Source: Escherichia phage vB_vPM_PD06. Taken from it: a stretch of 64,000 nucleotides of DNA. The notes under the pieces are model-generated. The model saw only the letters and a program-made list of their open reading frames with translations. It ran no database searches and was not told where the DNA came from. The stretch's first letter is position 1, and each line of letters begins with the position of its first letter. The stretch lies in sequence record NC_052653.1; one strand, written 5' to 3'. The position numbers and the translations under genes are program-made. Positions 4,869 through 63,598 of this stretch are shown in pieces.

Positions 4869-5445
4869 ATCTTTTATTGTTGCAGTTGTTTTAGGTAGTG
4901 CATTGCTGGTAGGTTGTGATGATTCTGAAAATGTACAAAACCAACGTTACCAACAAACACCAAATCAGATGGTAGATGAACAATATGTAAATCAACCTGC
5001 ACCTCAAGTTGTTCAAGCAGCACCTGCACAACCTTCAACAGTTGTTGTGCAAGGAGGCGGTAGTGGTTCTTCTGGTGTAGGTGAATTTGCTACAGGTATG
5101 CTTCTTGGTCATATGTTGAGTGGTAATAGTGGCGGTGGTGGTTATAGAGATGGCGGTAGCAATACAACAATTATTAATAACAACGCTGCTCCTACAACTA
5201 ACAGTAAATCATATACAACACAAAAGCATAGTTTTTATGATAAACAAGGGAATACATATACAACAACTAAACAAAACACAATTAAGCAGCAAAGTGTACA
5301 AACGTATTCACGCCCATCAACAACAAAAGTGAATAGTGATTACTCTGCTCGTAAGTCTTACTCAAGCCCTATTAGCTCTTATAGTAAGTCTTCGAAAAGT
5401 TATTCTTCGTCGAAACGTAGTTTTAGTAGCTCACGTCGTCGTTAA
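4855..5445 (+). CDS. lipoprotein, Q/N/S/T-rich low-complexity body
   Basis: MKNIKSFIVAVVLGSALLVGC has a signal peptide and an LVGC lipobox. GAGAGGG lies before the ATG at 4855; the track start at 4840 is less likely. Confidence 0.7.
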   Translation: MKNIKSFIVAVVLGSALLVGCDDSENVQNQRYQQTPNQMVDEQYVNQPAPQVVQAAPAQPSTVVVQGGGSGSSGVGEFATGMLLGHMLSGNSGGGGYRDGGSNTTIINNNAAPTTNSKSYTTQKHSFYDKQGNTYTTTKQNTIKQQSVQTYSRPSTTKVNSDYSARKSYSSPISSYSKSSKSYSSSKRSFSSSRRR

Positions 5446-5480
5446 TAATTTAATACAGATTAAATAAGAAGGAGAAACAG

Positions 5481-6332
5481 ATGAAACTAGAAGTTGGTAA
5501 AGTGTATCGCCTGGAAGGTTGGATCTTTAATCAAGAAATTCTTGAGAAGAATAAAGATGGTTTTGAGTTTGTTGGTACTACCAAAGAAAGTATGCACGAT
5601 GACGAATACTGTAAATTCGTTGGTAAAAATACAGGTCAAGAACAATTTTGCTTTAAAAGCGCAATCGGTGATTATGCTTCTGTAATGCCAACGCCAGAAA
5701 AAACTTCGAAACAATATACTGTCTTTGGTGTAAAACTTGAAGAGCTTGTAGAACACCCACGTTTTGAAGAGTTTAAGGTTGCTGCAATGTGCAAGCATTC
5801 TGAAATTAAGATACATAATTTGTTTGATTTAGAAGATCGGTTTGATATCTTTATGTATGATCGCAGGGGAAAGCATTTTGATGCAACGACTTCAAAATTT
5901 GCTGCAACAGAGGATATTAAAATCCTTGATGTTGATACCTTTCTTGAGAGTGTATCGTTTGTATTCATTCCTAAATACAAAAAACGTAGTGATCATAAAC
6001 GTGTGAAAGGAACTCCTCGTAAAAAACGTACTGTAAACAAAGCAACTTTGCACTTCACTTCTGGTGATAAATATACTCTCAAAGGGTTTGAAAGTGTTTT
6101 GTATGATGCGGGAACGGGTAATATCAAGTTTATCATTAAGGCAACCTACAAAGGTACGGTATTGCACGAAGAGGCTGTTACACTACCTGTATTCGATATC
6201 TCTCGTGTTGAGGTACGGGGTGTTAAAGAGTCCTTCGATCTGGATTTCTTAACCACTAATGCTACTGGTTATGTTAACCTGGAAGCAGATGGAGCATTTA
6301 TTACTACAAATTATTTAGATATGTTTGTTTAA
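5481..6332 (+). CDS. hypothetical protein (283 aa)
   Basis: ORF track; AAGGAGA RBS. No motif recognised. Confidence 0.7.
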   Translation: MKLEVGKVYRLEGWIFNQEILEKNKDGFEFVGTTKESMHDDEYCKFVGKNTGQEQFCFKSAIGDYASVMPTPEKTSKQYTVFGVKLEELVEHPRFEEFKVAAMCKHSEIKIHNLFDLEDRFDIFMYDRRGKHFDATTSKFAATEDIKILDVDTFLESVSFVFIPKYKKRSDHKRVKGTPRKKRTVNKATLHFTSGDKYTLKGFESVLYDAGTGNIKFIIKATYKGTVLHEEAVTLPVFDISRVEVRGVKESFDLDFLTTNATGYVNLEADGAFITTNYLDMFV

Positions 6333-6400
6333 TACTTAATTTGTGTTATGATGGTGGTACAGAGGTATCACCATCTACTAAAGAATATGGAGGAAATTGA

Positions 6401-11534: not shown

Positions 11535-11706
11535 TACTGGTGAAGTTGTAAAATCTTGGGATGATCTTAGTGGTATCCCTACAGATAAACTGATTAAACT
11601 GCGTGATGTTTGTCGTGATCATCTTAATGAAACATATAAAGAGTATATGGAAGCACGAGATCACAGTTTAGCTATCCAAATGGAACTCGCAAAACGTAAT
11701 CAATAG
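11512..11706 (+). CDS. hypothetical protein (64 aa)
   Basis: AAGGAGG RBS 6 nt before the ATG. Confidence 0.6.
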   Translation: MKTIGINDTGEVVKSWDDLSGIPTDKLIKLRDVCRDHLNETYKEYMEARDHSLAIQMELAKRNQ

Positions 11707-11763
11707 GTAAAACCATTTGGACTTTTTAGTCTAAAAATGCTAAAGTAATAATACGGAGGGAGT

Positions 11764-12327
11764 ATGATATTTCACATAACTCCCTATCTTTCTGGAGATA
11801 TTGGAAAAGGTATCAATGACACAATAAGTGTCTTACCAGAAGATAGTTGGATTTGCCTAAGAGACATTGATACAATGTTTCTTCTTCCAGAACAACCTGC
11901 TTGGTTGGAATCAATAGTCCGTTCAAATCCTGATTTTGATGTTCTTGGTGCATCTTGTAATAGATTGGGATCAACATATCAATTATTTAATAATGAAAGA
12001 AGTGAAGATCCAAATATATTACACCACATTGAGATTGCAAAAAGAGCACATCTAGAATGGGGAAACTCAATAGAGGAAGTACCTACAGATGCTATCTTAG
12101 CAGGATTCTTTCTTCTCTTTCGTAAGAGTCTGTGGAATGAAATCCCTTTTGAGGAAAGATCAATACAGTTTGATATAATTTTCTCTAAAGCATTACACGC
12201 TAACAATAAAAGGCTAGGTTTACTACGTGGGTTATATTTATTTCACACATACCGTTTAGGTAATGATGATCCTAGAAAAGCTGTTTCACACCTTTTACAT
12301 TGTCAAGACATGAATAAAATTATTTAA
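11764..12327 (+). CDS. putative GT-A-type glycosyltransferase
   Basis: Small Rossmann-like N-terminus with a RDIDT (DxD-like) motif. GGAGGGAG RBS. The function call is tentative. Confidence 0.5.
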   Translation: MIFHITPYLSGDIGKGINDTISVLPEDSWICLRDIDTMFLLPEQPAWLESIVRSNPDFDVLGASCNRLGSTYQLFNNERSEDPNILHHIEIAKRAHLEWGNSIEEVPTDAILAGFFLLFRKSLWNEIPFEERSIQFDIIFSKALHANNKRLGLLRGLYLFHTYRLGNDDPRKAVSHLLHCQDMNKII

Positions 12328-12336
12328 GGAGTTATT

Positions 12337-13023
12337 TTGGAAAATACAAAAATTGGTGTTGGTGTTATTACTGTAGGTAAGCGTCCTCTTAAAGATTATC
12401 TTGTGACTGATCCTAATGCTACTTTTGTTGTGCAGTATGATCGGGAACGAAAAGGTGTTGCATATGCCCGTAATGAACTGATGAAAAAGTTTTATGATGA
12501 AGGGTATGATTACTGGTTTATTTTTGATGATGATTGCTATCCGGTTGTGCCAGGTTGGGAAACATATTTTGTAAAACAGGCTAAGGAAAATGGTTGGGAT
12601 TTCTTTGGTATGCCTGAATATTTTAAAGATAAAGTAAAAGGTATTGAGGGTGAAGTGGTTATTTGGGAACTAGGTATGTGTCAGTTTGGTATGTATTCCC
12701 GTGCAGTTATTGAGAAAGCTGGCTATTTCCGCTCATACACCCACGGTTATGGATATGAAGATGCAGAGTGGATTCAGCGCGTTCCACTGGCAGGTTTGAA
12801 CCGAGGTATTCAGGGCGTACCATGTCCTATTCGAATTATGGCGTTTATCCATCCTGACGATGTGTTTGGAGATAATCCTTTACCTTTTGCGAATCTGTCA
12901 AAAGAAGAGAAAGAACAGGGGATTGGTGTAAACTGGGAACAATATAAACAATCACTGGAGGATCTTCGCAATGGTAAAACTTTTATCTCTTATGAGGAGG
13001 CTCAAAAATATGGTAAGTGCTAA
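12337..13023 (+). CDS. putative family-2-like glycosyltransferase, TTG start
   Basis: IGVGVITVGKRP..., GVAYARNELMKKF and FIFDDDCYP (DxD). AAGGAG RBS. Confidence 0.6.
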   Translation: MENTKIGVGVITVGKRPLKDYLVTDPNATFVVQYDRERKGVAYARNELMKKFYDEGYDYWFIFDDDCYPVVPGWETYFVKQAKENGWDFFGMPEYFKDKVKGIEGEVVIWELGMCQFGMYSRAVIEKAGYFRSYTHGYGYEDAEWIQRVPLAGLNRGIQGVPCPIRIMAFIHPDDVFGDNPLPFANLSKEEKEQGIGVNWEQYKQSLEDLRNGKTFISYEEAQKYGKC

Positions 13024-13984
13024 TACTCCTGTACTTAAGTGTGATAATAAGTTAGGCAGTGGTTGTGATTACCATCGTATTGTAATGCCGTTTGCGGGAA
13101 ATACGTTCAAACCTAAGAAAGACGTTTTAGTTTTTAATAGAGTGTACTCTCGTGGATCAGACGAGGTTAAACGCCTGAAGGCACAAGGTGTTAAGATTAT
13201 TGTTGACTTAGATGACTTTTATTCACTTAATCCTGAACATTATATGGCTGGCGTATTTACTAATCACTCAAAGACTATTGTAGAGATGGTTAAGTTAGCA
13301 GATGTTGTTACAGTAACAACAGAATACCTGGCTTACAAAATTCGTCATTTAAACCGTAATGTTGTCGTTATTAGAAACGCACTACCTTACGACGAAGGTC
13401 AATTTACTTTGACAAAAGACCGTTATTCTGACACGCCTATTATTTGGGCTGGAGGAGCAAGCCATGAACCTGATTTATCTCTTGTAGCTAATACATTTGA
13501 TGATACACTATTGACAATTGCAGGGTATGAAGTGTATCCTTCTGCACCTGTTGGAAATAATAGTCAGTATCTAACTACTGCGGAGTGGGTTAAAATAAAA
13601 CGTAAAATTCCAAATGCACAGTATAAACCAGCTATTAAAAATTTAGGTGAGTATATGTCTGTGTATGACGGTCACAGTATTGCAATTGCTCCTCTGGTAG
13701 ATAATGACTTCAACAACTGTAAAAGCAATTTGAAGATTTTGGAAGCAGGTGCAAAGGGTCTTCCTATTATCTGTTCTCCTGTGCTGCCGTACTTCAATCC
13801 GGTAGATGCAAAGGCTGTTATTTATGCAGACTCTAAAGCATCTTGGCATTATGAAGTTGTCAAGCTAATGAGGAACCCTAGATACACAGAAGATCGTGGT
13901 ATGATGCTTGCAGAACACGTTCGTCTTAATTATAATCTTGCAGATGCCAATGAACTGCGTCGTCAAGTTATTGAAAGTCTTTAA
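13010..13984 (+). CDS. GT-B (group 1-like) glycosyltransferase, paralog A
   Basis: C-terminal NCKSNLKILEAGAKGLPIICS motif. GAGGAGG lies 9 nt before the ATG at 13010. Clear paralog of the next gene. Confidence 0.65.
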   Translation: MVSANTPVLKCDNKLGSGCDYHRIVMPFAGNTFKPKKDVLVFNRVYSRGSDEVKRLKAQGVKIIVDLDDFYSLNPEHYMAGVFTNHSKTIVEMVKLADVVTVTTEYLAYKIRHLNRNVVVIRNALPYDEGQFTLTKDRYSDTPIIWAGGASHEPDLSLVANTFDDTLLTIAGYEVYPSAPVGNNSQYLTTAEWVKIKRKIPNAQYKPAIKNLGEYMSVYDGHSIAIAPLVDNDFNNCKSNLKILEAGAKGLPIICSPVLPYFNPVDAKAVIYADSKASWHYEVVKLMRNPRYTEDRGMMLAEHVRLNYNLADANELRRQVIESL

Positions 13985-13995
13985 CAAGGAGCCAT

Positions 13996-14940
13996 ATGCC
14001 TAATATTATTCTTGACACACGTGGACATGAGAGGTATAGTGTATGTGATTTTCATAGAATCATTTTGCCATATAAACGCAAACTGACCATTAATCCTAAG
14101 CATAATATTTTTGTGTTCAATGGAGTACCAACTCGTGGAAAGCCAGGTTTCCTGGCTCTTAAACAACTTGGGTTTAAATTGGTAATGGATCTGGATGATT
14201 CTTTAATTATTCCTGAAGGGCATATGCTTGAAGGATTATTTGAAAATCAAATCCGAGATGACCTAAAATGGTTCCTTGAAAGAAGCGATCTTGTAACTAC
14301 AACAACTCCAGCATTAAAGGTTGAATTAAGCCAATACAATGATAATGTACATATTGTGCCTAACGGACTACCTTTTGATGAAGGACAGTTTGTTCTTACG
14401 AAAGATCGTTATTCTAAAAGTCCACTGGTTTGGGCGGGAAGTGAAACACATAAACATGATTTAGCAATTCTCCCTGCTTTTGGTAAAGAGTTAACTTTAT
14501 GTGGATTTCGTAGAGATCACGAAGAGTTAAGTAGTGCTCAATGGTTGCAAATTAAAGAAGAGATTCAACCAGATTGTGTTTATGAAGGTATTCGTCCTTA
14601 TGAGTGTTATATGGAAGCATACGATGGTCATCAAATCTCCATAGCTCCATTAGTAAATAATCATTTTAATAATGCCAAAAGTAATTTAAAAATTCTTGAA
14701 GCTGGTGCTAAAGGTTTGCCACTCGTTTGTTCACCAAGAGAGAACTATTATACTGAAGAGTTTAAAGATCTAATCTTCTTTGCTGATTCAGTTAAAGAGT
14801 GGAAAGATATTGTAGAATACTTAATCGAATCTCCTGATGTTTGTATTGAGAAAGGATTGGCTCTTGCTAAGTATGTAAGAGATAACTACAATATTGATGA
14901 TTTAAATGAAACCCGCAGACTGCTTATCGAGGATTTATAA
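13996..14940 (+). CDS. GT-B (group 1-like) glycosyltransferase, paralog B
   Basis: Colinear similarity to 13010..13984 (DFHRIILPY / DYHRIVMPF; LTKDRYS; SIAPLVNNHFNNAKSNLKILEAGAKGLP). Confidence 0.65.
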   Translation: MPNIILDTRGHERYSVCDFHRIILPYKRKLTINPKHNIFVFNGVPTRGKPGFLALKQLGFKLVMDLDDSLIIPEGHMLEGLFENQIRDDLKWFLERSDLVTTTTPALKVELSQYNDNVHIVPNGLPFDEGQFVLTKDRYSKSPLVWAGSETHKHDLAILPAFGKELTLCGFRRDHEELSSAQWLQIKEEIQPDCVYEGIRPYECYMEAYDGHQISIAPLVNNHFNNAKSNLKILEAGAKGLPLVCSPRENYYTEEFKDLIFFADSVKEWKDIVEYLIESPDVCIEKGLALAKYVRDNYNIDDLNETRRLLIEDL

Positions 14941-17490: not shown

Positions 17491-20400
17491 ATGGGAGCTT
17501 TTACTTTCGACATTGAAAGTAACAACTTGCTTAATGACGAAAGTGTAGATTACTTGGCAAGTCCATATCGTTTAAAAGATAGTTTTGCAATGCACTGTAT
17601 TGTGTGCGAAAGTCATGATACTGGAGAGATTATTGCTTTCCATGATGGTGATAAATATCTTTTCGATGGTCGTCCGTATATTGAGACTGACGGAAAGTAT
17701 GAATACCGACTGGAGGAATATGAGCATTTAGAATATACCCATTTCCCTCTTAAAGATTTTCCTGATTTTGTAAATGGAACAGGTAAATTTAAAGGTAATT
17801 CAAACTATAAAATTACCAAAGTAGTTGGACACAACATCATTAACTTCGACTTACTGGCAATTAAATTATTTTTTAAACTCAACTACAGTATTAAGTACAA
17901 TACTTGGGGTAATAGTAACATTGAAATTTGTGATACTATGATCTTAAGTAAGACACTAAACCCTGATCGCTTCGGTGGTCATAGTCTGGCAGAGTTATCT
18001 AAGAAAGCTGGAGGGGATGTTAAAATTGATTTTAGAAAAAACATTCCTGAAACTGAAAGATTTAGAACATTTGCAGCAGATATGCTGTATTACTGTATTT
18101 ACGATAACAAAGCTAACACCGCAGTGTTCCGTTATTTGATGGAAGAGTGGGGTGATTATAACAAGTGGTCTGAACCATTTAACTTAGAACAACGTGTAGC
18201 TGATATTATTACACGTCAAGAGCACCGTGGCTTTGCTTTCAATATGAAACAAGCAGAAGATAATATTCGTGATCTGGATGCTCGAATGGAAGCATGTCGT
18301 TTAGAGGCAGAACCTGTGCTACCTCCTAAACCTGCTACTAAAGGTTATTTGAAATCATTCATTCCACCTAAACTACAGTTTAAAAAGAATGGTGAGCCTT
18401 CAAGTAACATGATAAAGTTTGCAGAGAAACATTCTGGTGAACTTGTACAAAAAGAAGATGGTTGGTGGTTATTTGCATTAGGTAAAGAGTTTAAACTACC
18501 TATTCCAGCAGAAGAACCTATTTGTGATCCTACAGTACCTGCTACTTTAGACGACACTACACATATTAAAAATTGGTTAGTTGGTTTAGGTTGGAGTCCA
18601 TCTGAATATAAAGATAAAGATATCACTCTTAAATCTGGCACTAAGATTAAGAAAGATGAAGCACAAATGGAGAAAGCTATTCGTGACTATGTTGATCAAA
18701 CATTAGCATCTAACTTCTGCCAGGATAGATGTGATCATCTGGAGTGCACACCAGAAACTTTGGAATGGAAACTAAGAGATCGTATTGCTAAAGCTAAAGG
18801 TCGTGGTGTTAAAGTGCTTACTAACCCTTCCTTTACAAAAGGGCAAGAGAAGGATATTTGTCCTAACTTGGAAGCACTGGGTGAAAAGTTCCCTTATGCT
18901 ACGCAGATTGTGCAGTATCTTACGTATAAACATCGTAGAAACTCTATTCTAGGTGGTGGTGCTGATTGGGAAGAGGATGAAGAGGATTACGATAAAGGTT
19001 ATCTGGCGGCAGTAAGAGCTGATGGTCGTATACCAACTCCTGCTGCAACGTGTGATGCAGCTACGTCTCGTATGAAACATAGGTTAGTAGCAAATATCCC
19101 ACGTGTAACATCTCTGTACGGATATGAAATGCGTAACTTATTTGGTGTAGAAGTTCCAAAATACTTCCAAATTGGTTATGACTTTGATTCTCTTGAGGCA
19201 AAAATAGAATCACACTACTGTGTACCTATGGATGCACAAGCACTAACCCGTAAAGGTTGGGTTGGTTATCACGATCTACAAGAAGGGGATGAAATCTTAG
19301 GATATAACCCAGAAACAGGACTTAAAGAATGGACTAAAGTAAAAGGTAAGGTCTTCTATAAAAATAGTAAGACGTTTGAGATTAAAGGAAAATCCCATAC
19401 TTATCGTGCAACAGCAGATCACCGTTGGTATGTTAATACTCGTAGTACAGGGAATACTTATGTGCCTAAAGTCAGAACAACTGCCGAGCTTTGCACAGGA
19501 GATAACATTATTTGTAATGCTCCATTTAACATGGAACAAGATCAAGTAAATAGTTTAACTTCTGTTCAACAAGGTAAATGGGATGTTCCGTGGGTAGAAC
19601 GTGTAGTTAATATGTCTCATGCCGAGCGTGTGGCTTTCTTGGAAGGTTTTTTGATTGCGGATGGTTACTGGCACAAACATAAACAAAAACCTGTTTGGCG
19701 CTGGGCGCAGAACCCAGGAGAACTTTTTGAAGCAGCCTTAACTGCCTCATACCTGGTTCATGGGGGTAATATTTCTGTAGCCTTCAATACGAAAGACCAG
19801 AAAGTAAAAGTGGCAACGTTGGCTAACCGCTCTCACATCCCTGTTCAAAGTCTGACTATTGAAGAATGGGGTGTAGAAGATGTTTGGTGTCCACAAACAG
19901 AACTCGGTACATGGGTTATGCGTCAGAAAGACTGCATCACGATTACAGGGAATTGTTGGCGGTACGAGCAGGAACCACACGAATATTGTAATGCTCTATT
20001 GTTGGAAAAACCTAATGATGTTCATACAATGATGGCTCGACGTATTTCTGACACTATTGGTCGTAAGTTTGAACGAAGCCCTGCTAAATCTGTTAAGTAT
20101 GGTATTACTTATGGTGCTCAAGCTGCAAAAGTAGCAAAAACTATAGGTAGTGATATGTATACAGGACAGCTTGTATACGATGCTTTCTGGGAAGCTGCAA
20201 AACCTCTTGCGCTTCTTAAAGAACGTCTGCATGACTTTTGGGTTAAAACAGGTAAGAAATACATTCTTGGTATTGATGGTAGGAAAGTACCTACACGATC
20301 TGCACACGCAATACTTAACTCTCTGTTCCAGAGTGGTGGTGTTATTTGTGCAAAAAGAGCAATGGTTATCTACGATGATCTTATCGAAGAAGAAGGATTA

Positions 20401-20805
20401 GCTGTTGACTTTTTTGTTGATGACTGGAAAAATAAGTCATTCGTTCAACAAATGATTGCATATCACGATGAAGCACAGCTTGAAGTAACTCGTGATCTGG
20501 TGCATTTTAAATGGTTCTCTAAAGAATCTTTAGGTTGGACTCAAGTTGATGATCCAGAAGAACAAAAGAAAATTGATAAAGAATGTTTGGATAAAGTTAA
20601 TGCCTGGAAAGAAGAGGAAGAGAAACGTACTGGCAAGATTTGGGCTAACGTACATGAATCTCCGAAAGGTGGTTGGTTTACAGCCTACAGTCGTGCTGGA
20701 GAATTAGCATCTATCGCTGTTAATAAAGCTGGTGAGTATTACAATCTTAATGTACCTCTAACTGCTGGTTACGATGTTGGTAGTTCATGGTCAACTTGTC
20801 ACTGA
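17491..20805 (+). CDS. family A DNA polymerase with 3'-5' exonuclease domain, interrupted by an intein
   Basis: Exo motifs FDIESNN, HNIINFD and YCIYD. Pol motif A GYDFDSLEAKI, motif B RSPAKSVKYGITYG and motif C AYHDEAQ. A 245 aa insertion follows motif A. Confidence 0.9.
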   Translation: MGAFTFDIESNNLLNDESVDYLASPYRLKDSFAMHCIVCESHDTGEIIAFHDGDKYLFDGRPYIETDGKYEYRLEEYEHLEYTHFPLKDFPDFVNGTGKFKGNSNYKITKVVGHNIINFDLLAIKLFFKLNYSIKYNTWGNSNIEICDTMILSKTLNPDRFGGHSLAELSKKAGGDVKIDFRKNIPETERFRTFAADMLYYCIYDNKANTAVFRYLMEEWGDYNKWSEPFNLEQRVADIITRQEHRGFAFNMKQAEDNIRDLDARMEACRLEAEPVLPPKPATKGYLKSFIPPKLQFKKNGEPSSNMIKFAEKHSGELVQKEDGWWLFALGKEFKLPIPAEEPICDPTVPATLDDTTHIKNWLVGLGWSPSEYKDKDITLKSGTKIKKDEAQMEKAIRDYVDQTLASNFCQDRCDHLECTPETLEWKLRDRIAKAKGRGVKVLTNPSFTKGQEKDICPNLEALGEKFPYATQIVQYLTYKHRRNSILGGGADWEEDEEDYDKGYLAAVRADGRIPTPAATCDAATSRMKHRLVANIPRVTSLYGYEMRNLFGVEVPKYFQIGYDFDSLEAKIESHYCVPMDAQALTRKGWVGYHDLQEGDEILGYNPETGLKEWTKVKGKVFYKNSKTFEIKGKSHTYRATADHRWYVNTRSTGNTYVPKVRTTAELCTGDNIICNAPFNMEQDQVNSLTSVQQGKWDVPWVERVVNMSHAERVAFLEGFLIADGYWHKHKQKPVWRWAQNPGELFEAALTASYLVHGGNISVAFNTKDQKVKVATLANRSHIPVQSLTIEEWGVEDVWCPQTELGTWVMRQKDCITITGNCWRYEQEPHEYCNALLLEKPNDVHTMMARRISDTIGRKFERSPAKSVKYGITYGAQAAKVAKTIGSDMYTGQLVYDAFWEAAKPLALLKERLHDFWVKTGKKYILGIDGRKVPTRSAHAILNSLFQSGGVICAKRAMVIYDDLIEEEGLAVDFFVDDWKNKSFVQQMIAYHDEAQLEVTRDLVHFKWFSKESLGWTQVDDPEEQKKIDKECLDKVNAWKEEEEKRTGKIWANVHESPKGGWFTAYSRAGELASIAVNKAGEYYNLNVPLTAGYDVGSSWSTCH
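19219..19953 (+). mobile_element. intein (245 aa) with a LAGLIDADG-like segment, inserted just downstream of polymerase motif A
   Basis: Begins CVPMDAQALTRKGW. Block B-like RATADHRW. Contains VAFLEGFLIADGYW. Ends CITITGN followed by +1 Cys (CWRYEQ). The flanking ESHY/CWRY aligns with the continuous T7-type pol sequence after motif A. Confidence 0.8.
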
Positions 20806-20832
20806 CATCTCTTTGATTTTAAAGGAGTTTTT

Positions 20833-21429
20833 ATGCTTACCGTGTATGGTGAAGGTATTAATGATTTGGAAGGCGAGAGTACACTACCTGGTAGTAAGAA
20901 ACTAACGCCGCATTATATGAAATGGATGGCTATGTTGGGGAGGTGTTACTCCCCTTGTCAACAAGAACGTGATCCTTGTTATAAGGGGGTGACGGTTTGT
21001 GAAGAATGGAAGTTGTTCTCCAATTTCTATTCCTGGTTGCAAACTTGGGATAACTGGGAAAACTTAGAACTTGATAAAGATATTATAGGAGGGAGAGTTT
21101 ACTCTCCCGATACCTGTCTTTTAGTAACAGGAGATCTTAATAAGTTCTTAGCTTATAGAGTAAGTAAAAGATCTCATGGGACTATGGTAGGCTGTAGTTA
21201 CGAGAAAGATCGTAAAAAGTATAAAGCCAACATAAAAGTAGGCAGTCGCATGAAAACGCTGGGACGTTTTAATACTGAAATTGAAGCGCATCTTTGCTGG
21301 TTGAAAGCTAAGGCAGAGCAGCTTACAAAATTCTTTGAAACTGAAGATGAAAGAGTTGTTCCACATCTTAAAGCACTATGTAATGAAATGCTTGAGCATG
21401 TAGAACAACATAAAGAGTGGACACGATAG
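20833..21429 (+). CDS. AP2-domain DNA-binding protein, free-standing homing-endonuclease-like
   Basis: N-terminal W..M..RC......YKGVTVCEEW..F..F motif and C-terminal AP2-like GCSYEKDRKKYKANIKVGSRMKTLGRFNTEIEA. Sits directly after the polymerase gene. Confidence 0.55.
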   Translation: MLTVYGEGINDLEGESTLPGSKKLTPHYMKWMAMLGRCYSPCQQERDPCYKGVTVCEEWKLFSNFYSWLQTWDNWENLELDKDIIGGRVYSPDTCLLVTGDLNKFLAYRVSKRSHGTMVGCSYEKDRKKYKANIKVGSRMKTLGRFNTEIEAHLCWLKAKAEQLTKFFETEDERVVPHLKALCNEMLEHVEQHKEWTR

Positions 21430-21437
21430 GAGAAAAT

Positions 21438-22031
21438 ATGAATATTGAAGATCAAAAAGTACGAGCTTTAGAAGTATTACGTATGTGCCAACTGGTAGAT
21501 CCGTTTGCAATTGTAGCTGGCGGCGCTGTACGCGACTGGCGATTAGAAACACCTGCGCAAGATATTGACATTTACTTGCGTATGCCTAACCACAATACAA
21601 CCGTACTGGTAGAGAAATTTTTGATGTTGGGTGTTGGTGCACGTAATGTTAAACAACTTACTAAGCAAACAGAACACACTTATGCCGAACTACCACATTT
21701 GAAATGGGTATTTGAAGCATACTATAAAGATCTTAAGTTTAACTTTATGATCATGGAAGAAGGTGTACGCAGTGAAATCGTATGGAACTTTGACGTAGCT
21801 ATTTGCCTGTGTTACTGGGATGGTCTAAATTATGTATATCATCCAGATTTTGAATTTGCATTGAAAACTAATATTTGCACTATTAATCACCGATACACAG
21901 GTAAAGAAGCACACGTCCGTAAAATGGCAGAACGTTTCCCTATGTTCCGCTTTGTAAAAGACGTTTTCATTCCCAAAGAACCAGAAGTACGTACACTGGA
22001 TTCGTTTAACAACGAAGAATTTAAGATTTAA
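21438..22031 (+). CDS. minimal Pol-beta-type nucleotidyltransferase of the tRNA CCA-adding / poly(A) polymerase family (head domain only)
   Basis: Signature AGGAVRDWRLETPAQDIDIY (GGxVRD...DxD). Only 197 aa. AGGAGAAAA RBS before the ATG at 21438. Confidence 0.65.
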   Translation: MNIEDQKVRALEVLRMCQLVDPFAIVAGGAVRDWRLETPAQDIDIYLRMPNHNTTVLVEKFLMLGVGARNVKQLTKQTEHTYAELPHLKWVFEAYYKDLKFNFMIMEEGVRSEIVWNFDVAICLCYWDGLNYVYHPDFEFALKTNICTINHRYTGKEAHVRKMAERFPMFRFVKDVFIPKEPEVRTLDSFNNEEFKI

Positions 22032-22034
22032 GTG

Positions 22035-22064
22035 TTGACAAACCTTACAATTATGTGTTATTAT
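22035..22064 (+). promoter_or_regulatory. extended -10 promoter TTGACA-18-TGtTATTAT
   Basis: TTGACA at 22035..22040 and TATTAT at 22059..22064, preceded by tgt. Confidence 0.6.
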
Positions 22065-22074
22065 GAGGACTTGA

Positions 22075-22473
22075 ATGACAGACAATCGTTCTAAAATCTT
22101 AGTCGAGACGTTCTACAGTAGAGAAACTAATCGTCTTGAACTAACTAAAAAAGATGTTGAACCTCAAGATAATACCTTTTTTATTCAAATACTATGTCTC
22201 TTTGGTGGATACAACCGTTTAACAGTGCGGGTAGAAGACAAAGAGATATCTGAAACCACTATCACAAAACGTGAACTAATGCTACTACAGGACACAATAC
22301 GAGATGTTTTGGACAATCCTGGAAAAGCAAAAGTAATTAACCTTGGTGGAGAAAAGATACAAATTCTCCATTTTGAAAGTGGTGAAATAGGATTTGGTAT
22401 TGGTCTTGGTAAATACCTGTTGGAAGAAACTGACGCTACTCTTTTACGAGAGTTTTGTGTTAAAGTAATGTAA
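22075..22473 (+). CDS. hypothetical protein (132 aa)
   Basis: ORF track. First gene after the promoter; weak GAGGA RBS. Confidence 0.6.
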   Translation: MTDNRSKILVETFYSRETNRLELTKKDVEPQDNTFFIQILCLFGGYNRLTVRVEDKEISETTITKRELMLLQDTIRDVLDNPGKAKVINLGGEKIQILHFESGEIGFGIGLGKYLLEETDATLLREFCVKVM

Positions 22474-22489
22474 TTATAGAGGAGAATTT

Positions 22490-23437
22490 ATGCCAGTAAT
22501 TAATTCTGAAATCGACCGTCGTACTAAAAAAGAAGCATTCTGGGCTGAAGGTATTGTCGAATATGTCAAACTAGATAAGTTTGATGAAATGAAAGTCTCT
22601 TATATTAAGGTTGCAGGTCAACCAGATAAGAAAATTGAATCAACTCACAAAGCATCTCTGCTTATTAAAGAGAAAGGTGCTGGTGCTGATGATAAAGGTG
22701 TTTGGGTTAGCCTAGGTGAAGTTAAACTGCACCCAGAACATGAAAACCTGCAAGTTAAAGATGGTGATAAGTGGGTTACTATCGAAAAAGGTGTAGAATT
22801 AACTATGGATGTTAAACCTTCCGAATGGAATGGCAAAACATACTACAATTCCTCTAAAGGTAAAATCACTATTCTTTCAACAGAAGGTGTTCAGCAAGCA
22901 CAATCCTCTTCAAAAGGTGGAAATAAGCCATCTAATAATGACGGTAGCAAGCCTAACTACAAAAAACGTGATACCGTAGGGATTGAAACAGGACACGCTG
23001 TAAACGGCGCTCTGGAGCTTCTACGTGCTGGTGTGAAAGGTGATGCTTTCGACTTGGCTGGTGTGGTACAATCTGCAACTGTTACTCTGAAAGCTGAAAT
23101 TGCTAAAGATCGTGGCGTTGATGTGACTGATTATGATCTTGGTGCTTCAGTTGGACACGCAATTCTTAACGCTTGTCGTGATCATACAGGTAAAACTGTA
23201 ACGGCAGAAGAGATTATTGAAGCTGCTCGTGAAGTTCTTGCTTTGTCTGATAAAGTAGCTGCTGCTATCCGTGGAATGTCTACTCCAGTACAAGAAGTTA
23301 AGAAAGAAACTAAAAAAGTAGAGAAGAAAGAGCCAGCACCGAAAGAACCAGAACCTGTTGTTCAAGATTTCGATGATGATATCCCATTTGCTCCTATTGG
23401 TTTGCAATATGGTCGAAACTTCCTGCACTGTTTCTAA
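22490..23437 (+). CDS. putative single-stranded DNA-binding protein with an SSB-tip motif
   Basis: The N-terminal region is OB-fold-like by composition. DFDDDIPF lies near the C-terminus (nt 23366..23389), identical to the bacterial SSB C-terminal tip as I recall it, followed by 15 more residues. Confidence 0.55.
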   Translation: MPVINSEIDRRTKKEAFWAEGIVEYVKLDKFDEMKVSYIKVAGQPDKKIESTHKASLLIKEKGAGADDKGVWVSLGEVKLHPEHENLQVKDGDKWVTIEKGVELTMDVKPSEWNGKTYYNSSKGKITILSTEGVQQAQSSSKGGNKPSNNDGSKPNYKKRDTVGIETGHAVNGALELLRAGVKGDAFDLAGVVQSATVTLKAEIAKDRGVDVTDYDLGASVGHAILNACRDHTGKTVTAEEIIEAAREVLALSDKVAAAIRGMSTPVQEVKKETKKVEKKEPAPKEPEPVVQDFDDDIPFAPIGLQYGRNFLHCF

Positions 23438-23459
23438 TAGTTAAATATTGTGTGAATAT

Positions 23460-23485
23460 AAGGAGCCTAACGGCTCCTTTTCTTT
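23460..23485 (+). terminator. rho-independent terminator
   Basis: aaggagcc-taac-ggctcctt followed by ttcttt. Confidence 0.7.
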
Positions 23486-23497
23486 GAAGGAGATATA

Positions 23498-24229
23498 ATG
23501 AGCGAATTTGTAAACAACACTGCATTAAACTACCTGCAAACCCTCGAAAGCAATAGTGTAGATTTGATTCTTACTGACCCACCATATGCTATTTCTCGTG
23601 ACACAAATTTTCAATCTGGAGAGCCTACTGGAAAAGATACGGATAGATTCCGTGTATCTTACAACTTTGGTGACTGGGACGTTGTAGATATTCCTTACTT
23701 TAAAGAAGTATTCAAAGAAGCCTATAGGGTGCTTAGAAAAGGTGGTACTTGCATAGTTTGGTATGATATCTGGAAGATCCAGGAGCTACGTGAAATCCTT
23801 GAACCGCTTGGTTTTCGTATGTTCCGTACTATTGAATGGATTAAAACAAACCCTGTACCCATCAACAGTGGTGTTAACTACCTTAGTAACGCTAAAGAGA
23901 TGGCTATTGTTTGTGTTAAAGGTTCGAAGCCAACCTTCAATGCTTCCTACCATAAGGGTGTGTTTGAGTATCCTATCTATCAAGGAGCAGATCGTTTTCA
24001 TCCGACACAAAAACACTTGACTTTGTTTTGTGACCTTATTAATATACATACCAACGAAGGAGATGTAGTCTTAGACTTCTTCTCTGGAAGTGCAACAACA
24101 CAAGTTGCGGCACTTTTAACAGGTAGAGAATACTTAGGCTGTGAAGCCGATGTAAATATTTTTAAGCAAGCGGAGGAACGACTAAATGAGTACACTGAAC
24201 AGCAAAATCACCCTGAAAGCACTGATTAA
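23498..24229 (+). CDS. DNA methyltransferase (beta-class N6-adenine/N4-cytosine type)
   Basis: DLILTDPPYAI (motif IV) is N-terminal and VLDFFSGSATT (motif I) is C-terminal. Target site unknown. Confidence 0.85.
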   Translation: MSEFVNNTALNYLQTLESNSVDLILTDPPYAISRDTNFQSGEPTGKDTDRFRVSYNFGDWDVVDIPYFKEVFKEAYRVLRKGGTCIVWYDIWKIQELREILEPLGFRMFRTIEWIKTNPVPINSGVNYLSNAKEMAIVCVKGSKPTFNASYHKGVFEYPIYQGADRFHPTQKHLTLFCDLINIHTNEGDVVLDFFSGSATTQVAALLTGREYLGCEADVNIFKQAEERLNEYTEQQNHPESTD

Positions 24230-24617: not shown

Positions 24618-24625
24618 GATAAAAG

Positions 24626-24654
24626 AAAAGGAGCCAATAGGCTCCTTTTTGTTT
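24626..24654. terminator. bidirectional terminator between the convergent arms
   Basis: aaaaggagcc-aata-ggctcctttt with an A-run and a T-run on either side. + and - strand genes converge here. Confidence 0.75.
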
Positions 24655-26539
24655 ATGTAACATTGACTGTAAATCTGACAAGAGGTGATAACACGTCATT
24701 ATCAGCATCATAATGTGCAACATCAAACACTGCTGTACCTGCTGCAAACCCGTATTGTTCAACCTGATCTGCATAAGTAAATGTGTAAGTGTTAGTATCA
24801 AGAGTTTGTTCTGTAAGAATTGCTGCTGTGAGGACGTTTACATTTCGGAAGTAATGTTTGGTATATCCTGCTGGTTCCCAAGAAATAATTGCATCTTGGT
24901 TAGCTTGTCTTACAGCGGCTCCTCCTGTTGGAACAGCCATATCAACCCAAACAGGTGACGTTGATGTTAGGTCTGTACCGTCTGCTGCTGATTTAGCAAG
25001 TTTTGTAGCTGCTGTCTGGTATATAGAAGAAATATAATGGATACGACCATCAATACCTTCTTCATAAACATAACCACTGTAGCGTTCAGCACCATCCACC
25101 CAAGAACCAATGATAACATCGTCACGTGCTGTAGAGATGGTTCTTTGTACATTTCTGTATTTCTGCCAATCCACACCATTAACTTCTACACCATATAGAT
25201 AAGAACGTCCTAGGATCTGCCAAACAATTTTTGCTTGAGAAGCAGGAACTATTGTACGCATCTTATCAAAGATAGCTATCGTAGCATCATGGTAACGTGT
25301 AGTGTTACTGTATCTACCTGCAACAGTCGAAGATGCTGATACAGCATCATTTTCACCTTGTCCCCAAATAATTGCTTTAACCTTACTTGCATAAGGTGTG
25401 ACTTTAGTGATAAAGTTAGTTAAGCATGGCCCGTCTGCTGTGTTATCCAGATCATACCAGTAGTTGTCTGGTGTACCTGTTCCGGCTTTATCATCTGCAT
25501 ATTTATCTGCTGCTGACGATCCAGAAGCTGCATTTAACGGAAGAACTTCAGCATTTGCTAAACCACGTTGCGTAGCATATGCATTACGGGTTGTTGTGCT
25601 ACTCATTGCTGCTTTATTTGCACCAGATAATTCTGTAAAGTGTGCATTTACGTTATCTTGTCCAGCAAAGACAATAACTTCTTTAATGAATGAATCATCT
25701 GTAGCTATTGAGTTATTAAAGATAACGGCTGCTGCTTTGGTGCTCTTAACGCTAATTTTAAGGTATGTTGGAGCAAACCCATAAAGAGGAATAGAGTCAG
25801 AGATATCAAAGTAGGCGTAAGTATTCGTGGTTGTTGTAGTCCACTGGACACTGTTATTACTTAAATCTAATACTTCTACAGTATAAGTATCACCATCTAG
25901 CGGATCAGCTACATCCCAAGCAACACGAATGTCTCCATAGCTGTTTGCCACGGCTGTTACATTAGAAATAACAGGAACAGCATTAACACCTAAATAAGAA
26001 CTATCAGAGGCCACCACTGTTCCTTGATAAGTTGCAGTGCAACCTATACGGCAACTGCCATCTTTAAGAGCAGTTATTAATCCTGTAGGACTTACAGTAG
26101 CTACTTCTGGATCTGTTGTGGTGTACGTAATTACCATATCTGGAAGGTCTTTAGCACCTTCTGGACTGATTGTAGCAACCAATTGTTGAGTAGTTCCTGC
26201 ATCCATAGCAGACAGACTTTCAGTGTACACACTTAATTCTGAAGCATAGCCACCAGATTGATCAGTTAAGACAGCACCTAAATTATTTTTAGCTGTCATT
26301 ATTGCATCAAAACCGCCTTCAGCAACAAACTCCATCATACCGTTATTATCTATAACCATTTTGGTATTATCTGAAGATGAAAAAGCTATATCAAATAACG
26401 CACCATCTTCTGGTGAAACTGTGTATGTCAGTTGCTTTTTACTACCAACTATTGCAATACCAATAGAGGAAGTGGTTATAGATGTAGCTGTTACTACTGA
26501 AGCTGATGTTGTTGACATAAATAAAGGAATAGGATACAT
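24653..26539 (-). CDS. tail-associated protein with Ig-like (Big_2), FN3-like and SASA/sialate-O-acetylesterase-like domains
   Basis: Big_2-like VATISPEGAKD...ATVSPTGLITALKDGSCRI. Esterase-like blocks VIVFAGQDNVN and IIWGQGENDA. AAGGAG RBS. Confidence 0.7.
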   Translation of the reverse strand: MYPIPLFMSTTSASVVTATSITTSSIGIAIVGSKKQLTYTVSPEDGALFDIAFSSSDNTKMVIDNNGMMEFVAEGGFDAIMTAKNNLGAVLTDQSGGYASELSVYTESLSAMDAGTTQQLVATISPEGAKDLPDMVITYTTTDPEVATVSPTGLITALKDGSCRIGCTATYQGTVVASDSSYLGVNAVPVISNVTAVANSYGDIRVAWDVADPLDGDTYTVEVLDLSNNSVQWTTTTTNTYAYFDISDSIPLYGFAPTYLKISVKSTKAAAVIFNNSIATDDSFIKEVIVFAGQDNVNAHFTELSGANKAAMSSTTTRNAYATQRGLANAEVLPLNAASGSSAADKYADDKAGTGTPDNYWYDLDNTADGPCLTNFITKVTPYASKVKAIIWGQGENDAVSASSTVAGRYSNTTRYHDATIAIFDKMRTIVPASQAKIVWQILGRSYLYGVEVNGVDWQKYRNVQRTISTARDDVIIGSWVDGAERYSGYVYEEGIDGRIHYISSIYQTAATKLAKSAADGTDLTSTSPVWVDMAVPTGGAAVRQANQDAIISWEPAGYTKHYFRNVNVLTAAILTEQTLDTNTYTFTYADQVEQYGFAAGTAVFDVAHYDADNDVLSPLVRFTVNVT

Positions 26540-62963: not shown

Positions 62964-63060
62964 TGGCAGCAAGGTGAGGAATCGAACCCCTTGATCTATG
63001 GTTTGGAGCCATATTGAGTACCATACTCTTTTAAATCTACCCAGCTATGAGTTCCTTGAG
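62964..63060 (-). pseudogene. tRNA-Trp(CCA)-like gene with a disrupted 5' acceptor/D region
   Basis: Anticodon arm TATGG-CTCCAAA-CCATA, T arm AGGGG-TTCGATT-CCTCA and a 3' end CCTTGCT-G-CCA are canonical. The expected 5' acceptor strand is absent in register; CAAGG lies 21 nt further upstream. Confidence 0.4.
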
Positions 63061-63104
63061 GTGTCAATGTAATTTAATCATTACACCAGAAGGGAGGTAT
63101 TTAG

Positions 63105-63183
63105 TGGAGGCGGGAATCGGATTTGAACCGATGATCTCCAGCATATGAAACTGGCGAGGACGACCAGACTCCTCTATCCCGCG
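63105..63183 (-). tRNA. tRNA-Met (anticodon CAT), initiator-like features, CCA encoded
   Basis: Hand fold CGCGGGA-TA-GAGG...CCTC-G-CCAGT-TTCATAT-GCTGG-AGATC-ATCGG-TTCAAAT-CCGAT-TCCCGCC-T-CCA. C1 and C72 are unpaired. A11:T24 is present. Confidence 0.75.
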
Positions 63184-63198
63184 CAATCTGTAATAATT

Positions 63199-63283
63199 TG
63201 GTAGCTAAGGTGAGACTCGAACTCACAATCCCTTGGGGCAATACGTTCTAAGCGTATCGTGTATACCATTCCACCACTTAGCC
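63199..63283 (-). tRNA. tRNA-Leu (anticodon TAG), type II with long variable arm, CCA encoded
   Basis: Acceptor GGCTAAG/CTTAGCT, anticodon arm ATACG-CTTAGAA-CGTAT, variable stem CCC-CAA-GGG, T arm GTGAG-TTCGAGT-CTCAC. Confidence 0.8.
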
Positions 63284-63292
63284 ATAATAAGT

Positions 63293-63356
63293 ACACCACT
63301 GTAAGAAGCCTCAATGTGCTATTGACAGTTAACCAAGTCTACTCCTTGGATGGTGT
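63293..63356 (-). ncRNA. 64 nt tRNA-like structured RNA (not a canonical tRNA)
   Basis: A 7 bp closing stem ACACCAT/GTGGTGT encloses hairpins CCAAG-GAGTAGA-CTTGG and TCAAT-AGCAC-ATTGA. No T arm or CCA. Packed 4-9 nt from the flanking tRNAs. Confidence 0.35.
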
Positions 63357-63360
63357 TATT

Positions 63361-63435
63361 TGGTGCAGAGAGATGGTAACGATCCATCCTTTCTACCTTT
63401 TCAGGGTAGCACTAATCCGTCTCAGCTATCTCTGC
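63361..63435 (-). tRNA. tRNA-Phe (anticodon GAA), CCA encoded
   Basis: Acceptor GCAGAGA/TCTCTGC, anticodon arm CTACC-CTGAAAA-GGTAG, T arm GATGG-ATCGTTA-CCATC (atypical T loop). Confidence 0.75.
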
Positions 63436-63440
63436 AAATT

Positions 63441-63516
63441 TGGTCAGTGCGGCAGGACTCGAACCTGCGACCTGAAGCGTCCAAGGCTCCCACGCTACCA
63501 ACTGCGCTACGCACTG
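63441..63516 (-). tRNA. tRNA-Pro (anticodon TGG), CCA encoded
   Basis: Acceptor CAGTGCG/CGCACTG (C1:G72), D arm GCGC-AGTTGGTA-GCGT, anticodon arm GGAGC-CTTGGAC-GCTTC, T arm GCAGG-TTCGAGT-CCTGC. Confidence 0.85.
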
Positions 63517-63523
63517 TAAATCT

Positions 63524-63598
63524 TGGCTGGAGATCTAGGAATCGAACCTAGTCATCACGACTTCAAAGGCCGTTGCCTTCCCACTAGGCTAATCTCCA
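63524..63598 (-). tRNA. tRNA-Gln (anticodon TTG), CCA encoded
   Basis: Acceptor TGGAGAT/ATCTCCA, D arm GCCT-AGTGGGA-AGGC, anticodon arm ACGGC-CTTTGAA-GTCGT, T arm CTAGG-TTCGATT-CCTAG. Confidence 0.85.

Follow-up and report, generated by a model that had tools for sequence, protein, structure and literature searches.

A short nucleotidyltransferase of predicted class II fold encoded near the DNA polymerase gene of a phi92-like phage

The nucleotidyltransferase gene and its locus

The nucleotidyltransferase gene described here occupies positions 21438..22031 (+ strand) of the window, the whole 64,000-nucleotide stretch of DNA that was analysed, which comes from an E. coli myophage of the phi92-like type (Justusliebigvirus, Stephanstirmvirinae). 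The open reading frame runs from an ATG at 21438 to a TAA at 22029-22031 on the + strand and encodes a protein of 197 amino acids. An AGGAG ribosome-binding site, read from the sequence at 21428..21432 (+ strand), is located 5 nt 5' of the ATG and shares bases with the stop codon of the HNH gene upstream. Translation is unlikely to start at the in-frame GTG at 21417, because the alignment of homologues begins at residue 1. The protein is the orthologue of Phi92_gp158, falls in PHROG 1614 and has a precomputed assignment to Pfam family PF26128. It shares 98-99.5% identity with Phi92_gp158 and with the orthologues in ~50 phi92-like (Justusliebigvirus) genomes, where it is annotated either as 'nucleotidyltransferase' or as 'hypothetical protein', and bases 20800-23500 of the window are 97-99% identical to ~50 phi92-like genomes. 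This degree of identity across so many genomes identifies the reading frame as a conserved gene and not a chance ORF; it is an ordinary, already annotated phi92-like gene. The observation behind the original prediction, which was made from the sequence alone, proved right in every detail that could be checked: the GGAVRD...DIDIY signature that it had pointed out is present at residues 28-33 and 42-46, and the protein is, as stated, roughly half as long as a CCA-adding enzyme (197 aa, as compared to 412 aa in E. coli Cca). The protein is not basic, with a pI of 6.1 (family median 6.4).

The gene order at the locus is four glycosyltransferases, a T7-like primase-helicase, a small ORF, a T7-like DNA polymerase, an HNH endonuclease, the nucleotidyltransferase, a 132-aa protein, an SSB-like protein and a Dam-like methylase. 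The polymerase gene (17491..20805, + strand), located upstream of the nucleotidyltransferase, encodes a T7-type family A enzyme with an intein-like insertion. The inserted 245 residues (residues 577-821, encoded at 19219-19953) open with a Cys, end in ...TGN and are followed by a Cys, and they are missing from the polymerase of phage PHB05, which is otherwise 99-100% identical. The insertion looks like an intein, and some related records are named 'intein-containing DNA polymerase precursor'. The gene of an HNH/AP2 homing endonuclease (20833..21429, + strand) is inserted between the polymerase and nucleotidyltransferase genes; in Klebsiella phage 05F01 it is absent, and the two genes abut. Downstream of the nucleotidyltransferase are the genes of the 132-aa protein (phrog_16560; 22075-22473, + strand) and of the 315-aa SSB-like protein (phrog_4477; 22490-23437, + strand). 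Directly 3' of the nucleotidyltransferase stop codon, and ahead of these two genes, is a sigma-70 promoter-like site at 22035-22064 (+ strand) that consists of TTGACA, 18 nt and TATTAT with an upstream TG (11/12 matches). Because this site is positioned immediately past the stop codon and the polymerase and nucleotidyltransferase genes abut in 05F01, the nucleotidyltransferase probably ends the polymerase transcription unit, and judging from the sequence it is probably co-transcribed with the DNA polymerase. We also considered an obligate complex of the nucleotidyltransferase with the 132-aa or the SSB-like protein and rejected it, as these downstream genes co-occur with it in only 5 of 58 groups of family loci (see below) and have their own promoter-like site; synteny of the phrog_16560 and phrog_4477 genes with the nucleotidyltransferase is confined to Stephanstirmvirinae-like phages.

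Several other features of the region were recorded. Strong terminator-like hairpins are found at 23460-23479 (+ strand), past the SSB-like gene, and at 24625-24650 (both strands), where the bidirectional element separates the convergent replication-side genes from the tail-fibre gene (24653-26539, - strand). Four consecutive glycosyltransferase genes are positioned directly upstream of the phi92-like replication module, as seen at 11700-14876 of the PHB05 locus (L091). Despite these four genes, phi92-like phages are reported to be exceptionally sensitive to restriction (PMC8594841).

Six tRNA genes are located at 62883-63598 (- strand), 41 kb from the nucleotidyltransferase gene. All six end in an encoded CCA, in agreement with the original prediction, which had said so of all canonical phage tRNAs in the window. 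Between tRNA-Met and tRNA-Ile is a further tRNA-like element (62967-63027, - strand) that scores 22.9 bits with the Rfam tRNA model, for which the cut-off is 29, and receives no ARAGORN call; it has a good T arm followed by CCA and may be a degenerate or non-canonical tRNA. The tRNA-Met (CAT) gene itself (63105-63183, - strand) has a C1/C72 mismatch atop the acceptor stem that recalls the 1-72 mismatch of bacterial initiator tRNA.

A phage protein family with a predicted class II head

A plain search with the single sequence reached only the phi92-like cluster, and a profile built from phage tblastn matches was needed to go beyond it. This profile of phage homologues matched 894 proteins, and an exhaustive HMMER search with the single protein returned sequences that form at least 460 clusters at 50% identity, with lengths of 180-240 aa and end-to-end matches in nearly all. 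As judged from these sequences, the short nucleotidyltransferases are a stand-alone family and not a fragment of a larger enzyme; the longer family members were scanned for domain fusions, and no informative one was found. The 197-aa protein matches phrog_1614 ('nucleotidyltransferase') over residues 7-193 with an E-value of 1.2e-33, and the PF26128 label is precomputed for a 98%-identical cluster and for many homologues. Members occur in virulent phages that infect enterobacteria, vibrios and numerous marine hosts. A scan of prokaryotes, with one genome for each of 185,579 species and a single narrow peptide pattern that makes absence from cells suggestive rather than proven, yielded 7 loci, all on metagenome-assembled contigs. 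These data suggest that the family is essentially phage-restricted. A literature search for functional studies of PF26128, phi92 gp158 or phage CCA enzymes found none.

To place the protein structurally, we modelled it with AlphaFold2 using a 64-sequence alignment, which gave a model with a pLDDT of 87.9 and a pTM of 0.82 that is confident to approximately residue 175. The 31 best Foldseek matches to this model in the PDB are all structures of class II CCA-adding, A-adding or poly(A) polymerase enzymes, and ~150 residues align with these structures at 2.5-3.2 Å. The structure-match values are 12.2 for E. coli poly(A) polymerase, 11.2 for the Aquifex A-adding enzyme, 10.8 for the Bacillus CCA enzyme and 10.7 for the Thermotoga CCA enzyme, followed by 9.3 for a free-standing 'CCA head domain' from S. 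pneumoniae (2LA3, 191 aa), 7.9 for TENT5B, 6.8 for MenT1, 6.6 for an archaeal class I CCA enzyme and 5.3 for CD-NTases. The comparison with CCA- and A-adding enzymes and with MNT and CD-NTase folds that the original prediction had recommended thus places the protein closest to class II. Features of the Pol-beta superfamily are present in the model, namely an hG[GS] turn, a DxD strand, a third acid on a neighbouring strand and an alpha-beta-alpha-beta-alpha-beta core. Two helices, at residues 136-144 and 158-166 (21843..21935, + strand), match the first part of the class II neck. In class II enzymes the catalytic core is formed by the head and neck, which contain motifs A-E and have a flexible loop in between motif A and motif B, whereas body and tail serve to bind tRNA at its acceptor and T arms (PMC3925840, PMC8563995, PMC2910056). 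The predicted structure comprises a class II head and two helices, the first ones of the neck, and has no tRNA-binding body or tail. The proposal of a class II head lacking body and tail is therefore borne out at the level of the predicted fold. Compared to the class II tRNA nucleotidyltransferases of Bacillus (1MIV) and Aquifex (4WBY) and to E. coli poly(A) polymerase I (3AQL), the phage protein is half as large. The S. pneumoniae stand-alone head-domain protein (NP_344798.1), which is comparable in size, is only 9% identical, belongs to another sequence family and is bacterial rather than phage-encoded.

In a role outside nucleic-acid polymerization, the enzyme would nucleotidylate a protein or small molecule, or would make or consume a signalling nucleotide, in counter-defence or host takeover; we hold this to be a minority prospect, on a par with the replication-linked activity discussed below. 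The structural match to the MenT/AbiEii toxins is far weaker than that to class II enzymes. Those toxins belong to bacterial toxin-antitoxin pairs, and the phage nucleotidyltransferase locus contains no antitoxin-like partner.

We then asked how much of the class II motif set is retained, using plain regular expressions on 250 family members and four class II control sequences. Motif A is conserved: the 197-aa protein contains AGGAVRDW...DIDIY at residues 27-46 (21516..21575, + strand), which aligns with class II motif A, and the pattern GGxVRD followed by DxD is found in 236 of the 250 members and in all four controls. The other motifs behave differently. Class II motif B (DxxRRD) recognizes the ribose, and motif D (EDxxR) serves as the amino-acid template for C and A (PMC3925840, PMC8563995, PMC2910056). 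RRD is found in none of the 250 members as compared to 4/4 controls, and the motif B-equivalent region of the family reads x-F118-[G/D/P]119. ED..R occurs anywhere in the sequence in 15 members, the 197-aa protein not among them, and in 4/4 controls. The motif D-equivalent helix has the consensus K-E-x-[H/Y]-[V/I]-x-K (KEAHVRK in the 197-aa protein), and the two neck helices bear the family-conserved residues H/Y159 and K162 in place of the EDxxR base template. The bacterial poly(A) polymerase signature, [LIV][LIV]G[RK][RK]Fx[LIV]h[HQL][LIV], which is located between motif A and the loop (PMC2910056), is absent from all 250 members, as well as from the four controls, none of which is a true poly(A) polymerase. 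If elements are mapped by the order of secondary structures, the flexible loop would comprise only ~6 residues between hairpin and helix (107-112), as compared to ~20 in the Bacillus and E. coli enzymes, and by the same inferred mapping the conserved basic-x-acidic triplet (BxA motif) is absent from the family alignment. Relative to 1MIV, 4WBY and 3AQL, then, the family lacks RRD and the poly(A) polymerase signature, nearly lacks EDxxR and appears to have neither a full-length loop nor a BxA motif.

Profile methods led to a similar picture. HMMER and hhalign find significant similarity to class II enzymes in just two segments, the N-terminal helix and motif A. With E. coli Cca as the sole target, hhalign aligned 23 columns, all in motif A; against a four-sequence class II alignment made from the PDB matches it reported 92% probability, with an unreliable register downstream of motif A, and for this reason the mapping past motif A rests on the order of strands and helices, a turn glycine and regular expressions. 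The Pfam PolyA_pol model (PF01743) scores 19.3 bits, below its gathering threshold of 23, with profile positions 3-67 of 126 matched, and it gives weak matches in 6 of 64 family members, all under the cut-off. Residues conserved in at least 90% of the 250-member alignment are Q6, A10, A27, G28, G29, A30, R32, W34, D42, D44, Y82, F118 and K162. Taken at the level of sequence, the 197-aa protein is a divergent, minimal variant of the class II lineage, and no member of the CCA-, A- or CC-adding or poly(A) polymerase families. The earlier description of the protein as a 'CCA-adding-enzyme-type' nucleotidyltransferase is thus accurate as to motif A and the class II fold, and fails as to family membership (RRD in 0/250, EDxxR in 15/250, PolyA_pol at 19.3 bits).

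The putative catalytic centre

The residues expected to form the active site are highly conserved. Motif A supplies a glycine turn, R32 and two metal-binding aspartates, D42 and D44. G28, G29, D42 and D44 are present in 248-250 of the 250 members and R32 in 244. The position of the third carboxylate is unusual. In class II enzymes this residue, E79 of the Bacillus enzyme, is located in the sequence EVTTF on the strand that follows a hairpin turn. The corresponding hairpin of the phage protein, mapped by strand order and a conserved turn glycine, comprises residues 88-106 (21699..21755, + strand) and contains E93. By this mapping the equivalent of E79 would be residue 102, which, like E79, is four residues past the turn glycine. 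Position 102 is Q in 200 members, N in 39 and D in 8 (96% Q or N), whereas position 93, its cross-strand partner, is acidic (E/D) in 201/250 (80%). Nine members have an acid at 102, and seven of these nine lack one at 93, an anticorrelation with a Fisher p-value of 2e-4. These seven do not form a single clade, as they are only 22-35% identical to one another. An acid is present at 93, 95 or 102 in 221 of the 250 members. The pattern suggests that a single carboxylate is required, which may occupy one or the other of two cross-strand sites, and that in most members it has shifted to the neighbouring strand, which makes E93 the probable third catalytic carboxylate. In this respect as well the family apparently departs from the 1MIV, 4WBY and 3AQL enzymes.

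Maintained across hundreds of clusters, this conservation speaks for an active enzyme, and we consider it very probable that the 197-aa protein is an active nucleotidyltransferase of class II lineage. A catalytically dead remnant that persists as a binding or structural protein could explain the Q or N at the expected third-carboxylate position, as well as a copy in phage ICP1 of only 137 aa. This explanation is exceedingly improbable given the invariance of G28, G29, D42 and D44, the near-invariance of R32, the acid at 93, 95 or 102 in 221/250 and the at least 460 clusters in which the family persists. An active enzyme would be expected to move an NMP from an NTP to the 3'-OH of a nucleic acid, template-free and by two-metal catalysis; its choice of nucleotide would differ from that of CCA enzymes, and it would be unable to measure the tRNA elbow. 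The sequence evidence contains nothing that points to a surprising mechanism. If active, the family would represent the smallest natural catalytic core of the class II CCA/poly(A) polymerase type, and would constitute a natural experiment on a head and half neck that operate without an amino-acid template, a flexible loop or a tRNA anchor.

Gene context across the family and candidate functions

The genomic context of the family was examined in 80 IMG/VR loci, the annotated phage loci and the window. After ORF calling, neighbouring genes up to 8 genes away were sorted into clusters, and the nucleotidyltransferases fell into 58 groups at 80% identity. A family A DNA polymerase is a neighbour in 26 groups, a second DNA polymerase family in 6, a gp4-like primase-helicase in 25, HNH/AP2 homing endonucleases in 15 and a 5'-3' flap exonuclease (flap endonuclease) in 11, while DNA ligase, dCMP deaminase, ribonucleotide reductase and a gp2.5-like SSB are each found in 3-5. 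A DNA polymerase is thus located within 8 genes in up to 32/58 groups (binomial p ~1e-8, if a randomly chosen gene from a genome with at least 80 genes is expected to have such a neighbour in, roughly, no more than 21% of cases). Across the 58 groups, no RNA ligase, polynucleotide kinase, tRNA or tRNA-modifying gene is a recurrent neighbour. On the basis of these gene neighbourhoods we propose that the nucleotidyltransferase gene belongs, as an accessory, to the module for T7-type replication and nucleotide metabolism in virulent phages.

Similar arrangements have been described for other phage nucleotidyltransferases. In Gordonclarkvirinae, a nucleotidyltransferase is found alongside a dCTP deaminase among the replication genes (PMC11990801). 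Short 'tRNA nucleotidyltransferases' of podophages (Autographiviridae and others), including those of T7-like Pectobacterium phages, are encoded between helicase and DNA polymerase, and are present in 37 of 46 Pectobacterium Autographiviridae as compared to 60 of more than 500 others (PMC7693777). These podophage proteins (165-215 aa) include those of Pectobacterium phages PP47 (gp28), DU_PP_II and PP2, Dickeya phage Ninurta and Caulobacter phages Cd1 and Lullwater, and have the same predicted fold as the 197-aa protein (Foldseek against BFVD, E 1e-7 to 1e-9), but share only 15-21% identity with it. The names of some of them in BFVD, 'Poly A polymerase head domain-containing protein', suggest that they are closer to the Pfam PolyA_pol model. 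By sequence they are a sister family of that of the 197-aa protein, not the same one.

This context is compatible with a replication-linked enzyme that adds (deoxy)nucleotides to the 3' ends of DNA or RNA primers in a terminal-transferase-like manner, either for a T7-type replisome or in DNA-end processing. Consistent with such a role are the recurrent polymerase, primase-helicase and flap endonuclease neighbours, the order primase-helicase, polymerase, (HNH), nucleotidyltransferase and SSB-like gene in the window, the location of the Pectobacterium phage enzymes and the complete lack of RRD, since loss of this ribose motif may have removed discrimination against dNTPs. However, T7 itself replicates without such a gene, we know of no class II enzyme that acts on DNA, and the clustering of phage genes often reflects the timing of expression rather than function. 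The restriction sensitivity of phi92-like phages also speaks against DNA modification (PMC8594841); for the same reason a role in DNA hypermodification, as speculated for Gordonclarkvirinae (PMC11990801), is unlikely here. On balance we hold a replication-linked activity to be a minority prospect. Its most specific form is improbable: a first class II-lineage nucleotidyltransferase that serves the DNA replisome and not tRNA, and that, as a minimal enzyme of head and neck whose third carboxylate has been relocated and which has neither ribose nor base template, extends or caps RNA-primer or DNA 3' ends with (d)NMPs.

The original prediction had instead implied a connection between the gene and the phage's own tRNA operon, which the family data do not uphold. 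Only 7 of 88 family loci have tRNA genes within 10 kb of the nucleotidyltransferase, the neighbours are DNA-replication genes, and the complete 46.9-kb genome of Vibrio phage 402E50-1 (Zobellviridae) contains the nucleotidyltransferase and no tRNA; physical linkage to tRNA genes was rejected on these grounds. The same observations weigh on the possibility that the protein is a canonical CCA- (or A-) adding enzyme for the maturation or upkeep of the tRNAs that the phage encodes. Such a role would fit the presence of motif A, the class II head fold and tRNA genes in this phage, and some records label homologues 'tRNA nucleotidyl transferase / poly(A) polymerase'. Against it, the six tRNAs already encode CCA, the protein lacks motifs B and D as well as body and tail and, by the inferred mapping, the flexible loop, and the NCBIfam CCA equivalog models give the 197-aa protein ~14 bits as compared to cut-offs of 281-290. 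The motif tests largely refute a canonical CCA-adding role, which we judge highly improbable.

Repair or tailing of RNA 3' ends, with tRNA as the leading candidate, is in our assessment the single likeliest function, albeit one favoured only tentatively. The substrate of the enzyme would be an RNA 3' end in the infected cell, most likely that of a tRNA or other small RNA shortened by exonucleases or by nucleases of defence systems or competitors. The protein would then be a simplified repair or tailing enzyme. Maturation of the phage's own tRNAs would not be its task, as CCA is already encoded in them and members of the family do not accompany tRNA genes. The choice of an RNA or tRNA 3' end as the target, itself no firmer than a leading guess, is made because the characterized class II enzymes all act on RNA 3' ends (PMC3925840) and because a part in the repair of tRNA ends has been suggested for phage CCA enzymes (PMC7824862). 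A parallel is provided by RlaP and other phage RNA-repair nucleotidyltransferases, which are proposed to restore lost RNA-end nucleotides in a template-independent manner as a counter-defence (PMC7824862). However, RlaP is from another Pol-beta family and is found together with RNA ligases, whereas no RNA ligase or kinase-phosphatase recurs beside the phage family. Several features count against an RNA-end substrate, namely the absence of the body, the tail and the Asp/Arg base template, the non-basic protein, the replication-gene neighbours and the Q or N at position 102. In addition, the host already owns a complete Cca. A related idea, that the protein is a poly(A)- or oligo-tailing enzyme that marks host RNAs for decay and thereby aids host shut-off and nucleotide recycling, strikes us as decidedly improbable.

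Much about the gene was already known: it is annotated, its family has PHROG and Pfam entries, and repair had been put forward in print as a role of phage CCA enzymes. The failure of the class II motifs beyond motif A, the apparently relocated third carboxylate and the association with T7-type replication genes, all drawn from sequence comparison, appear to be new. As the family is routinely labelled 'tRNA nucleotidyltransferase' or 'nucleotidyltransferase' on sequence alone, knowledge of its substrate would either correct or justify that label, and could expose a simple tRNA- or RNA-end repair counter-defence or an unrecognized accessory activity of T7-type replication.

A truncated copy is ORF223 of Vibrio phage ICP1 (2959-3372 of locus L004), which at 137 aa ends just past the equivalent of W126 and therefore has neither the neck helices nor the conserved K162. 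Some ICP1 isolates have two small ORFs beneath the match, and the copy may be a decaying or split gene. Approximately 1.7 kb downstream of it (5099-6369 of the same locus) are genes that resemble a ribose-phosphate pyrophosphokinase and a nicotinamide phosphoribosyltransferase, a pair that resembles a phage NAD-reconstitution pathway and whose nearness to the nucleotidyltransferase copy is probably a coincidence.
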